64,000 bases of DNA, from assembly GCF_965641715.1 (NCBI RefSeq), contig NZ_OZ282453.1; one strand, 5' to 3'. The stretch comes from Escherichia coli (GTDB lineage Bacteria; Pseudomonadota; Gammaproteobacteria; Enterobacterales; Enterobacteriaceae). Positions 33,203-37,540 of the stretch are shown in pieces (the first letter of the stretch is position 1; each line of letters begins with the position of its first letter). Made by a program: the position numbers and the translations under genes. The notes beneath the pieces were generated by a model, which worked only from the letters and a program-made list of their open reading frames with translations, was not told the origin of the DNA and made no database searches.

Positions 33203-35056
33203 ATGAGACGATTTCTGACGACGCTGATGATACTCCTGGTCGTGCTGGTGGCCGGGTTATCTGCGTTAGTGTTGCTGGTGAATCCGAATGATTTCCGCGA
33301 CTATATGGTCAAGCAAGTTGCTGCACGTAGCGGTTATCAATTGCAGCTCGACGGGCCACTGCGTTGGCACGTCTGGCCGCAGCTTAGTATCCTCTCCGGG
33401 CGAATGTCTCTCACCGCCCAGGGCGCAAGCCAGCCACTGGTTCGCGCCGACAACATGCGTCTGGACGTGGCGCTTTTACCACTACTGAGTCATCAACTGA
33501 GCGTTAAGCAGGTGATGCTAAAAGGGGCAGTGATCCAACTGACGCCGCAGACGGAAGCGGTGCGCAGTGAAGACGCTCCGGTTGCACCGCGCGACAATAC
33601 CTTGCCGGATCTGTCAGACGATCGCGGATGGTCGTTTGATATATCCAGTCTTAAGGTGGCGGACAGCGTTCTGGTGTTCCAGCATGAAGATGACGAGCAG
33701 GTGACAATCCGCAATATCCGCCTGCAAATGGAACAAGATCCCCAACATCGTGGCTCATTTGAGTTCTCCGGGCGGGTTAATCGCGATCAGCGCGATCTCA
33801 CGATATCCCTTAACGGTACGGTAGATGCTTCTGATTATCCGCATGATTTAACGGCGGCTATTGAACAAATTAACTGGCAGTTGCAGGGTGCCGATTTACC
33901 AAAACAAGGTATTCAGGGGCAGGGGAGTTTCCAGGCCCAGTGGCAGGAGTCACATAAACGCCTTTCATTTAACCAAATCAGCTTGACCGCCAATGACAGT
34001 ACGCTGAGCGGGCAAGCACAGGTTACGCTGACAGAGAAACCGGAATGGCAGCTGAGACTGCAATTCCCGCAACTGAATCTTGACAACCTCATCCCGCTTA
34101 ATGAAACCGCGAATGGTGAAAACGGTGCCGCGCAGCAGGGGCAGAGCCAATCAACGTTGCCGCGCCCGGTCATTTCTTCGCGTATTGATGAACCGGCCTA
34201 TCAGGGACTGCAAGGCTTTACGGCTGATATTTTGTTGCAGGCCAGTAACGTGCGCTGGCGCGGAATGAATTTTACAGATGTTGCCACGCAAATGACCAAC
34301 AAGTCGGGTCTGCTGGAAATTACTCAACTACAGGGCAAGCTTAACGGTGGACAGGTTTCACTGCCGGGCACGCTGGACGCGACATCAATAAATCCGCGGA
34401 TAAACTTCCAGCCACGGCTGGAAAACGTTGAGATTGGCACCATTCTGAAGGCGTTTAACTATCCGATTTCGTTGACCGGAAAGATGTCACTGGCTGGTGA
34501 TTTCTCCGGTGCTGACATAGATGCCGACGCATTCCGCCACAACTGGCAAGGACAGGCACATGTCGAAATGGCCGATACGCGCATGGAAGGGATGAACTTC
34601 CAGCAGATGATTCAGCAAGCGGTAGAACGTAATGGTGGTGATGTGAAGGCCGCTGAAAACTTCGATAACGTAACGCGTCTTGACCGCTTTACCACCGATT
34701 TGACGTTGAAGGATGGCGTCGTGACGTTAAACGACATGCAAGGTCAATCGCCTGTGCTGGCGTTGACAGGGGAAGGTATGTTGAATCTGGCAGATCAAAC
34801 CTGCGACACCCAGTTTGATATTCGGGTCGTGGGTGGTTGGAACGGGGAAAGCAAACTGATTGATTTCCTTAAAGAAACGCCAGTACCGCTGCGGGTTTAT
34901 GGCAACTGGCAGCAACTCAATTACAGTCTGCAAGTGGATCAGTTACTGCGCAAACATCTACAGGACGAAGCGAAACGTCGCCTGAATGACTGGGCCGAGC
35001 GGAATAAAGATTCCCGTAATGGCAAAGATGTGAAGAAGTTGCTGGAGAAGATGTAG
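33203..35056 (+). CDS. asmA: Outer-membrane assembly protein AsmA
   Basis: 617-aa ORF with N-terminal TM anchor; conserved position after dcd. Confidence 0.95.
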   Translation: MRRFLTTLMILLVVLVAGLSALVLLVNPNDFRDYMVKQVAARSGYQLQLDGPLRWHVWPQLSILSGRMSLTAQGASQPLVRADNMRLDVALLPLLSHQLSVKQVMLKGAVIQLTPQTEAVRSEDAPVAPRDNTLPDLSDDRGWSFDISSLKVADSVLVFQHEDDEQVTIRNIRLQMEQDPQHRGSFEFSGRVNRDQRDLTISLNGTVDASDYPHDLTAAIEQINWQLQGADLPKQGIQGQGSFQAQWQESHKRLSFNQISLTANDSTLSGQAQVTLTEKPEWQLRLQFPQLNLDNLIPLNETANGENGAAQQGQSQSTLPRPVISSRIDEPAYQGLQGFTADILLQASNVRWRGMNFTDVATQMTNKSGLLEITQLQGKLNGGQVSLPGTLDATSINPRINFQPRLENVEIGTILKAFNYPISLTGKMSLAGDFSGADIDADAFRHNWQGQAHVEMADTRMEGMNFQQMIQQAVERNGGDVKAAENFDNVTRLDRFTTDLTLKDGVVTLNDMQGQSPVLALTGEGMLNLADQTCDTQFDIRVVGGWNGESKLIDFLKETPVPLRVYGNWQQLNYSLQVDQLLRKHLQDEAKRRLNDWAERNKDSRNGKDVKKLLEKM

Positions 35057-35065
35057 GTTACCAGG

Positions 35066-35115
35066 TGACCTGTCCTGTAGGCCTGATAAGACGCGTAAAG
35101 CGTCGCATCAGGCGT
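35066..35115. repeat. REP element downstream of asmA
   Basis: TGTAGGCCTGATAAGACGCG...CGTCGCATCAGGCG palindromic motif. Confidence 0.7.
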
Positions 35116-35507
35116 TCGCGGCGGCACCATTATATTCTGAATATGTAAGATCGAAGGCTGTTCCGTTCACTTGATGTTCCTCACTACTATGGAACGCTCA
35201 AGCCGGTGAACGTGCCAGGGTGGCTCAATCGCCACCACCCTGGCAACCCGGGCTCCCGGCGGTAAATCGCCGCTGGCGCGGTTCCCTCATCTTATTCCTT
35301 TCGGCTATCGGGTACGGGCGCGAGGTAACATCCCTGTAAAACGCGCCCTCAGCCCACATCCGTGTGGGCTGCCCCGGCCTACAGGAAACGATTCGGCGAT
35401 TTACAGCCGGACCCACACCCCCGCTGTAATGTCCATGTACCATAGACAACGCTTCATTGCTGAAGTTATAAGGCGTTACGCAGCATCGGGTAAAATGACC
35501 GATACCA

Positions 35508-37091
35508 TCACACCTCGTACTCCATCTCGCCATCCTTACGCAGCGGTATAATCTGCACCTTCTGCACGCGATGGCTTTCTACCTGCAACGTTTTAAGCAA
35601 ATAATCCCCCACCTGAACTTCTTCGCCAGGTTTTGGAATACGCTGCAAATATTCCATCAATAGCCCGGCAATGGTGTGATATTCACGTTTTTCATCCAGC
35701 GGCAGCGGCACATATTGCACCAGATCTTCCAGCGGCATATGACCATTCGCCGTCCAGGAACCGTCCGCATTCTTCTGAATATCATGGCGGGCGTCGATCT
35801 CTTCCACTTCGTTCGGTAAGTTACCGGCAATGGTTTCAGTGACGTCACTTAATGTCACAATCCCTTCCACCGAGCCAAACTCATCCACCACAAAAGCAAA
35901 GTGCGTGCGGGCATTACGGAACTGCTCCAGGGCAGGTAACAACGGCAAGGTTTCCGGGAACACCAGCGGCTGGCGAATCAACACCCGCAGGTTGAGCGGT
36001 TCGCCGCGCAGAGACTGTTGTAGCAGGTCGATAACGTGAACAACACCGAGCAAATCTTCTGCGTCATCACCGTCGGTAACCACCAGCCGCGTATGCTGAT
36101 TTCGCTCCAGCAACTGGCGGATTTCTTCTTCCGGCGCGTTGAGATCGATATGCTCAATATCGTGGCGCGACGTCATAATGCTGCTGACGGTACGCTGGTT
36201 AAGATTAAGTACCCGCTCAATCATCCGCCGTTCCTGCGGATTAAAGATCTGCTGGTTACCATGATCCACCAGCATGGACGCGGTTTCGGCGTCCAGTTCC
36301 GCATCTTCTTTTTGCCCGCTAAGCAGGCGCATTACCGCTTCGGTAGTCCGCTGGCGTAGCGTCTGGTTAGCGGAAAGAAAACGTCGCCGGTTAAAGATAG
36401 CCAACTGATTGAGCGCCTCGATCATCACCGAGAAACCAATAGCAGCGTACAGGTAGCCTTTCGGAATGACGAAGCCGAAACCTTCTGCCACCAGGCTAAA
36501 GCCAATCATCAACAGGAAGCTTAAGCAGAGAATAACGATGGTCGGGTGACTGTTAACAAATTGCGTTAACGGCTTGCTGGCCATCAACATCAGGCTGATA
36601 GCGATAACCACGGCGGCCATCATGACCAGTAAATGGTCGACCATCCCGACGGCGGTAATCACTGAGTCGAGTGAGAAGATGGCGTCCAGTACCACAATTT
36701 GCGTCACCACGCCCCAGAACTTCGCACCTTTGCGTTGTGTGGGATTATTGCTGTCTTTCCCTTCCAGCCGTTCGTTCAGCTCCATCGTGGCTTTGAACAA
36801 CAGGAAGAAACCACCAAACAGCATGATTAAGTCGCGGGCGCTAAAGGTAAACGAGCGGAAGCTGAACAGCGGTTGAGTCAGGGTGACCAGCCAGGAGATT
36901 GACGCCAGCAGTAACAGGCGCATTAACATCGCCAGCAGCAGCCCGGTAACCCGTGCGCGGTCGCGCTGCTTCGGCGGTAGTTTTTCGGCGAGGATGGCAA
37001 TAAAGACCAGGTTATCAATGCCGAGGACCAGTTCGATCACAATCAGCGTGATTAACCCGGCCCAGATAGACGGATCGGCAATCCATTCCAT
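35508..37091 (-). CDS. yegH: TerC-family membrane protein with CBS-pair and CorC/HlyC C-terminal domains (YegH)
   Basis: 527-aa product starting [33 protein letters not shown]... inside the longer track ORF 35508-37157. Confidence 0.9.
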
Positions 37092-37540
37092 AGTAAGTAC
37101 AAAACCTATTCGTTGTATGACAAATGTCACAATTCGATCATGGATAAATCGGGGCAAAAATGCAATGTTGCAGCACTATTTATCTCATATTATTTGAGGG
37201 TAATAACCTCACATTATCCCTGAATTAAAAGTGGTAATAATAAAACATTATTTAAGAAATATCGCATGTGGAGACGCAATATTAAATATTGTCAACATAA
37301 AGAAACTCCTAAAAACCATATTGAATGACACTTAATATAATTCTTAAAAATAGCCAATTGCCGAATTGTTACCTTGCCTGCTATTCCGTTAGCTGTAACA
37401 CTTCCTCCTGCATTATTGGAGAGCCAATATTCAATTACCATAATGTCACCTTATATTCGGAAGTTAATTTCCGCAATAACCCTTTCTCATCAACGACTGT
37501 ATGTTGAGAGGGTTTTAAAAATTAAGCTAAATCAGTGTAT

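Follow-up and report, generated by a model that had tools for sequence, protein, structure and literature searches.

Why is the spacer between the convergent genes asmA and yegH so long and so rich in hairpins? In the window, by which we mean the whole analysed stretch of 64,000 nucleotides of Escherichia coli DNA, asmA (33203–35056, plus strand) and yegH (35508–37157, minus strand) converge on a gap that extends from one stop codon to the other (35057–35507). A sequence-only reading of this DNA had described the gap as a GC-rich spacer of about 450 bp with a REP element near asmA, several hairpins, and no convincing ORF. It had suggested that such a region could hold more than a terminator, namely an unannotated sRNA, a small protein, or a structured regulatory RNA. 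The description of the spacer is borne out by measurement: the gap is 451 bp long and has a GC content of 56%. E. coli strain A30 is 100% identical to the window.

We propose, with a probability of about 0.8, that the gap is composed of a REP, a divergent repeat unit of the TRIP1/RRS family, and short locus-specific flanks, and that the unit is an uncatalogued, decaying member of this family without the G-quadruplex (G4). The spacer would be long because two dispersed intergenic repeats occupy it.

Composition of the asmA–yegH spacer

The features of the gap, with their positions in the window, are as follows.

35077–35113, no strand assigned: REP palindrome directly 3′ of asmA, GTAGGCCTGATAAGACGC-GTAAA-GCGTCGCATCAGGC
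35139–35430, minus strand (the G-rich, GGA-loop strand): divergent repeat unit of the TRIP1/RRS family
35164–35212, minus strand: terminal stem (CGTTC/GAACG plus inner helices), with conserved arms and a variable interior
35213–35245, minus strand: 12-bp GC hairpin CCAGGGTGG...CCACCCTGG, at the position of the RRS G-quadruplex region
35250–35269, minus strand: 3′ arms of the closing helices P0/P1, pairing with 35397–35414
35270–35281, minus strand: small hairpin D (CCGC-N4-GCGG), with the compensatory form CCAC/GTGG in Klebsiella
35307–35314, no strand assigned: left copy of the 8-bp direct repeat ATCGGGTA, bounding the K-12-type deletion
35316–35348, minus strand: hairpin B, with apical UUACAGGGAUGU at 35328–35339 and a covarying stem
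35350–35371, minus strand: hairpin A (CCCACATCCGTGTGGG, 35353–35368), with loop CGGA within ACACGGAUGU
35397–35414, minus strand: 5′ arms of the closing helices P0/P1, pairing with 35250–35269
35431–35499, no strand assigned: locus-specific tail, present or absent jointly with the unit
35485–35492, no strand assigned: right copy of the 8-bp direct repeat ATCGGGTA, bounding the K-12-type deletion

The REP that had been noticed near asmA is located at 35077–35113. It is a REP-consensus palindrome with 100%-identical copies at other E. coli loci in many genomes, and it matches the REP-derived Rfam family naRNA4 with 33 bits, which is below the threshold of 59.5 bits.

The boundaries given for the unit are block boundaries from a multi-genus alignment, and the minus strand is assigned to it as the folding strand that the evidence mildly favours. 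The GC content of the structured unit is 59–63%, the core having 63%. The locus-specific tail is gone in the REP-only allele, is largely deleted in K-12, and is kept at the orthologous locus only (L084). Comparison of the tail with the flanks of other copies reveals no significant similarity. The segment 35431–35490 was also considered as a homologue of the AT-rich spacer that lies between paired units in other genera; this candidate was rejected, since local alignment to 10 copies scores about as shuffled sequences do, the sole exception being one short motif shared with locus L016.

A search for sigma-70-type promoter and intrinsic terminator consensus sequences on both strands of 35000–35620 found none, and asmA and yegH are both without a canonical intrinsic terminator in this interval. 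The search likewise found no promoter or terminator consensus at TRIP1a, and in an Enterobacter composite it gave nothing beyond two weak sites that resemble a terminator.

A dispersed repeat family and its conserved fold

When 5,426 complete E. coli genomes are searched by megablast with the gap as query, the locus turns out to be polymorphic, and part of the gap has further copies at other places in these genomes. A search of higher sensitivity, with 35212–35415 as query, gives a median of 3 and a maximum of 10 places in an E. coli genome. Nearly every genome has a copy of ~85% identity between aqpZ and lysO, and some strains have a third one between proX and an MFS gene. The aqpZ–lysO paralogue is 266 bp long and starts 70 bp after aqpZ and ends 158 bp before ybjE/lysO, which is the published position of TRIP1a. 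TRIP1 was named by Rudd in 1999 and surveyed by Li et al. (2024, PMC10888264), who describe TRIP1a–e as GC-rich (62–65%) intergenic elements of 146–273 bp at five type-specific loci (aqpZ/ybjE, putP/ycdN, yohI/yohG, alx/sstT, and copA/ybaP). TRIP1a and TRIP1c are identical with the replication risk sequences (RRS) RRS-lysO and RRS-dusC, respectively (Pham et al. 2024, PMC11194060).

The unit in the window is TRIP1-like in kind, being 268–292 bp long, GC-rich (59–61%, core 63%), and intergenic. BLAST aligns it with TRIP1a at 85.2% identity (189 aligned positions, E = 7e-53), with TRIP1c at 84.7% identity (189 aligned positions, E = 9e-52), and with TRIP1b at 76.6% identity over 64 nt. The match to TRIP1a and TRIP1c spans positions 80–264 of the unit, ~185 nt. 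Neither asmA–yegH nor proX is among the five listed loci. The published survey admitted elements with more than 80% length coverage of the reference TRIP1 (PMC10888264), a coverage that the unit does not reach: its alignment spans positions 59–243 of the 266 of TRIP1a. The survey missed the unit because only ~70% of the length of TRIP1a and TRIP1c aligns. The "RSA/BEE95" repeats, which entered the analysis through a 1996 title cited in PMC3751351, were considered as the identity of the unit, and the lead was dropped; as far as that title goes, RSA is probably a different family, because Rudd called TRIP1 novel in 1999.

A core pattern of 20 specified bases, run against 100,044 species genomes, matches 77 loci in ~12 enterobacterial genera, nearly all of the loci being in Enterobacteriaceae. 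The genera include Escherichia, Klebsiella, Enterobacter, Kluyvera, Citrobacter, Pseudescherichia, and Pseudocitrobacter, as well as Phytobacter, Huaxiibacter, Silvania, and Leclercia. The three loci outside Enterobacteriaceae, on a Desulfacinum MAG contig, a Sporobacter MAG contig, and a low-coverage Bacillus contig, are taken to be contaminants. Enterobacter sp. ENT03, Kluyvera cryocrescens, and K. pneumoniae ATCC 13883 carry 5–7 near-identical copies in a single genome, which is the pattern left by a spreading element. The copies have ends of two types, TTGCGCTCC...GGAGCGCGC in TRIP1a/RRS and CGTTCAC...GTGAACG in the window type. Most units are located 3′ of genes (3 of 62 scorable sites lie between divergent genes, by crude ORF calls), and units often adjoin REP-type palindromes.

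In many genera, the unit is one half of a composite of 590–650 bp (L036:6607–7258, L016, L018, L019, L029, and L047–L053). The other half is a more diverged, inverted partner, and the GGA strands of the two run outward from a conserved AT-rich spacer. The partner units have partial matches of their own (30–37 bits) to the Rfam motif TwoAYGGAY, which is discussed below. The copies in Enterobacter sp. ENT03 (L030–L036) are ~90–94% identical, and the segment enclosed by their terminal stems is wholly different (for example, L036:6626–6676). These segments, as well as the corresponding one in the window (35171–35207), are 35–40 nt long, and a loose motif, ..TG.GAAC.., recurs in them. A role of the variable segment as a guide or seed was rejected, since no complementary or similar sequence was found elsewhere in the 64-kb window. 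In Kluyvera cryocrescens, the RRS G4 region of one copy (L048, about 1245–1468) is expanded by tandem GGGGTGCA repeats, and the inter-unit spacers of L050–L052 contain tandem repeats of ~33–36 bp (CGCTGNAAGTTTTCAGCTAAAAGCCAACGYCAATAT). Rfam also reports a C4 antisense RNA above threshold, with sub-threshold isrK and c4-a1b1, an immunity RNA of phage P1/P7 type, in an Enterobacter MAG (L012:750–949), and a 5′ ureB sRNA in Enterobacter soli (L063:4510–4787). Both are probably coincidental neighbours of family copies.

The two hairpins named in the sequence-only reading are both present in the minimum-free-energy fold, and they are two of about a dozen conserved helices. The fold of the 292-nt unit is more stable than expected from shuffled sequences (z = −5.2 for the minus strand and −4.6 for the plus strand; 0 of 200 shuffles as good). 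Folded alone, the window unit adopts the helices of the family, with an MFE of −138 kcal/mol and z = −5.2. In an alignment of 71 non-redundant copies, written on the window's minus strand, RNAalifold predicts 38 pairs, 20 of which show compensatory changes. A 69-pair consensus was further compared with controls in which the partners were slid by 1–3 columns. Across the 71 copies, 92% of the cells are paired, as against 39–49% in the controls; 37 pairs have changed on both sides, as against 13–17; and the covariation score is 0.244, as against 0.065 or less. In 500 shuffles, the observed values were never attained. Covariation is present within each subfamily (in the window's own, 20 double-changed pairs as against 4–8), and one consensus structure fits both. 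The hairpins are thus real and non-random, their fold is conserved across Enterobacteriaceae, and the suggestion of something more than a terminator in the gap stands.

The compensatory changes extend to the individual helices. The closing helices P0/P1 amount to 17 covarying base pairs, and P0 occurs as CCGGC/GCCGG, TGGCG/CGCCA, and CGGCC/GGCCG. The 12-bp hairpin, with its arms CCAGGGTGG and CCACCCTGG at 35215–35223 and 35235–35243, varies between GGTGGC/GCCACC and GGCGGC/GCCGCC, and the 9-bp stem of hairpin A has 4 covarying pairs. On top of covarying stems, two hairpin loops are invariant over the 71 copies (CANGGAUG): loop A reads CA(U/G/C)GGAUG and loop B reads CA(G/C)GGA(N)G, each in 71 of 71. 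The diverged partner units have GGA in both loops, too. The conservation of fold and loops argues for strong purifying selection on both across genera and against the family being merely junk, so that an intact copy could retain activity.

The strand that folds is suggested by two comparisons. The ribosum-scored fold energy of the alignment is −150 for the minus strand and −133 for the plus strand, and G-U cells exceed A-C cells by 178:81 overall and by 35:16 in well-aligned helices. This excess of ~2:1 leans to folding of the G-rich (minus) strand, in an assignment that is not decisive because the structure was derived on the minus strand. The bias does not separate folding of RNA from folding of single-stranded DNA.

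Alleles of the locus and possible roles of the unit

The intact gap is present in 1424 of 5416 E. coli genomes (~26%). In an evenly spaced sample of 60 records, ~25% of the alleles are intact, ~42% are of the K-12 type, ~8% are of the O145 type, ~7% have the REP only, and ~15% carry a toxin–antitoxin module. The K-12-type allele lacks 178 bp between the ATCGGGTA direct repeats. The O145-type allele lacks 159 bp, and the deletion ends at the base of the closing helix P0. In the REP-only allele (L091), a 385-bp segment is replaced by 8 bp, leaving a gap of 67 bp with the complete REP as its sole element; in this minimal allele, one REP alone separates the two stop codons. In O157:H7 and others, a RelE/ParE and HTH module takes the place of both the REP and the unit, and the unit and the module are rarely found together. 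In E. coli, the gap is a hot spot with multiple alleles (window; L002, L003, L091, and L092), and the unit is dispensable there. About three quarters of E. coli genomes, K-12 included, have lost all or part of the region.

The unit is also present at the asmA locus of other Escherichia species and clades (L023, L057, and L084), and the copy at asmA–yegH is therefore old. At two of these loci, L023:8700–9300 (E. coli SCPM-O-B-8794) and L057:300–900 (Escherichia sp. E1V33), the unit lies between two inverted REPs in an orientation that is reversed with respect to asmA, an arrangement that suggests a REP-mediated flip. In the proX–MFS gap, 544 E. coli genomes carry a TRIP1-like unit (L004:2380–2770), and K-12 and most strains have at the same position a BIME of one or two REP pairs (L087 and L088). 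No target-site duplication or clean insertion junction was seen at proX–MFS or asmA–yegH, so past mobility is read from copy-number patterns alone.

Taken together, the unit is most likely a decaying repeat and not a dedicated sRNA gene. It may have arrived as, or may descend from, a spreading repeat that settles beside REP-type palindromes 3′ of genes. Its single strand, in replicating DNA or in RNA if the region is transcribed, would fold into the conserved structure. The copy at asmA–yegH would now have no indispensable role and would be undergoing erosion, which in the K-12 type is presumably due to slippage between the ATCGGGTA repeats and in the O145 type to excision at the base of the closing stem. 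Any local effect is probably generic, in that the unit would provide stable 3′-end hairpins for two convergent genes without canonical terminators. The age of the copy, its persistence intact in a quarter of E. coli, and the strong cross-genus selection on the fold and the two loop sequences speak against decay. With respect to the structured regulatory RNA suggested earlier, the conserved and covarying fold is upheld and the specificity to this locus is not, the unit being a copy of a dispersed TRIP1/RRS repeat. The sequence-only reading had itself counted it against its proposal if the region were a known repeat-family element only, and this is essentially what the gap contains, a REP and a TRIP1/RRS copy.

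Three other roles have to be weighed against a decaying repeat. An unannotated small protein could be encoded by one of the three longest ORFs of the gap, of 102, 40, and 39 aa, but a Pfam search of all three returned no match, and this reading was rejected. The judgement that the gap has no convincing ORF is in accordance with this result; the possibility of a small protein, raised alongside it, is not. The 102-aa ORF, on the minus strand, starts inside yegH in another frame; the family copies vary by indels of 1–2 nt; the substitutions compensate stems and are not codon-like; and the common deletion alleles, which have lost 159–385 bp, destroy the gap ORFs. A credible small protein is almost certainly absent. 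It is also very improbable that the unit is a working RRS, in which the folded strand would stall lagging-strand synthesis and the resulting gaps would relieve topological stress. The unit is homologous to two elements with experimentally demonstrated activity, RRS-lysO and RRS-dusC, in which the G4 blocks polymerases and RecA/SSB-coated post-replication gaps arise (PMC11194060). The hairpin core is common to both, and the fold is very stable. Moreover, the C-rich RRS strand blocks Pol II too, at another site, and an inverted RRS is partly functional (PMC11194060). However, the RRS G4 motif GGGGGTGCAGGGGGCGGCGG, present in TRIP1a and TRIP1c, has no match on either strand of the window, and its position is occupied by GGGTTGCCAGGGTGGTGG, that is, by the CCAGGGTGG hairpin. 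G4 potential was scored in the G4Hunter style, because the canonical expression (four G3+ runs) misses the published RRS G4; the maximum is 1.2 for the window unit and 1.84 for TRIP1a, and their two subfamilies have medians of 1.12 and 1.8, respectively. The orientation is opposite to that of the published functional RRS as well. The cumulative GC skew of the plus strand of the window is positive (+0.22), indicating that the plus strand is the lagging-strand template and that the G-rich (minus) strand is the leading-strand template, whereas the G4 of K-12 dusC is on the bottom strand and the lagging-strand template, in agreement with the publication. In addition, Pham et al. saw no further G4 site in E. 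coli (PMC11194060), K-12, the strain that they studied, has a truncated copy here, and the asmA–yegH locus is polymorphic. Judged by its sequence, the window copy is probably not an RRS.

A functional minus-strand RNA is possible, if unlikely. It would be produced as a 3′ extension of the yegH mRNA or from a promoter of its own, it would resemble TwoAYGGAY, and its GGA hairpins would bind a CsrA dimer, with the effect that CsrA is sequestered or that the fate of the yegH mRNA is tied to CsrA. The G-rich GGA-loop strand is the sense strand of yegH, and a terminator is absent between the yegH stop codon and the unit. TwoAYGGAY (RF01731), which has been proposed as a CsrA-binding RNA (Gardner and Eldai 2015, PMC4333381), matches the minus strand of the window copy with 31.4 bits (E = 0.014, model positions 1–168), TRIP1a end to end on the same strand with 30.6 bits, and the two-hairpin core of other, distant units with 30–37 bits (30.4–37.2). 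All of these scores are below the gathering threshold of 43 bits, so that the Rfam scan proposed in the sequence-only reading yields resemblances to TwoAYGGAY (31.4 < 43 bits) and naRNA4 (33 < 59.5 bits), both below threshold. Loop A of the window (ACGGAU) fits AYGGAY, and loop B (AGGGAU) has G in place of Y. The invariant loops on covarying stems, the GGA kept in both loops of the diverged partners, and the preference of G-U cells and fold energy for the minus strand point in the same direction, although the G-T bias is also expected if the same strand folds as DNA. UUACAGGGAUGU at 35328–35339 matches 11 of the 12 positions of the CsrA SELEX consensus RUACARGGAUGU, but one such match in 64 kb is at chance level, being present in 39% of shuffles. 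The unit contains seven GGA trinucleotides in all, two of them as loop sites, and an Rfam scan for Csr/Rsm families gave no match. Further points against the RNA are the lack of promoter and terminator consensus sequences, the position of the GGA strand at TRIP1a, where it is antisense to both neighbour genes, and the more frequent reading of neighbour genes into the C-rich strand (49 versus 21, by crude ORF calls). Moreover, the window copy is lost in ~74% of E. coli. A broader version of the proposal, which we regard as doubtful, would make the whole TRIP1/RRS family, RRS-lysO and RRS-dusC included, an enterobacterial branch of TwoAYGGAY. The selected feature would be the fold with two CsrA-type GGA hairpins, the elements would act at least partly as RNA or single-stranded DNA that binds CsrA or another GGA-loop protein, the G4 would be a subfamily add-on, and the G4-less copies would keep the ancestral activity. 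The searchable literature holds nothing that we could find linking TRIP1/RRS to TwoAYGGAY or CsrA, and the link from RRS/TRIP1 to this orphan motif and to CsrA is offered here as a testable hypothesis, not as a result.

For the locus itself, a decaying repeat explains the odd spacer as dispensable repeat DNA, with little further meaning. For the family, the implications are wider. RRS/TRIP1 elements have been described as conditionally essential organisers of chromosome topology, with two or three near-identical copies defined by the G-quadruplex (PMC11194060). To this are added G4-less relatives at uncatalogued loci (asmA–yegH and proX–MFS), the multiplication of the family in other Enterobacteriaceae, where inverted pairs are frequent, and the finding that evolutionary conservation extends beyond the G4 to a fold and two GGA loops. 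The G4-less homologues are natural and therefore provide concrete controls for RRS experiments.

Comparison with known systems

The unit resembles REP/BIME elements in being extragenic, structured, multi-copy, and located at gene 3′ ends. It differs from them in being ~8 times longer, in having multiple helices instead of a single palindrome, and in its low copy number in E. coli. With CsrB/CsrC, the unit shares loop GGA motifs near the SELEX consensus, 28 nt apart. However, CsrB/CsrC have 9–22 sites, whereas the unit has two or three, and the unit is without promoter or terminator consensus and without a Csr/Rsm match in Rfam.

The likeness to TwoAYGGAY (RF01731; Weinberg et al. 2010) is closer. 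Both have two adjacent hairpins with ..GGAU.. loops within a long closing stem, and several copies of the unit align with the full length of the model on the same strand. The unit scores 30–37 bits against a threshold of 43 bits, however, and its second loop is AGGGAU, not AYGGAY. The seed is AT-rich and comes from gut Clostridia and Psychromonas, not from Enterobacteriaceae, whereas the unit is GC-rich, and the extra helices and the 3′ domain of the unit fall outside the model.

To RRS, the unit is homologous; the hairpin core is common to the two, as is a single-strand fold of high stability. It differs from RRS in having no polymerase-blocking G-quadruplex, in placing its G-rich strand on the leading-strand template, in lying away from the conserved positions that flank the Ter macrodomain, and in being dispensable in most strains.

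The nearest relative is TRIP1, with which the unit shares 85% identity over the ~185-nt core and a multi-branched predicted fold. The two are similar in size, GC-rich, intergenic, and located 3′ of genes, and internally deleted forms occur in both (125 bp are missing from TRIP1b and 159 bp from the O145 allele of the window unit). The unit is set apart from TRIP1 by its position outside the five catalogued loci and by its terminal stem, which is CGTTCAC/GTGAACG and not TTGCGCTCC/GGAGCGCGC. The subfamily of the window type is also present at proX–MFS and in Enterobacter, Pseudescherichia, Citrobacter, and Phytobacter.
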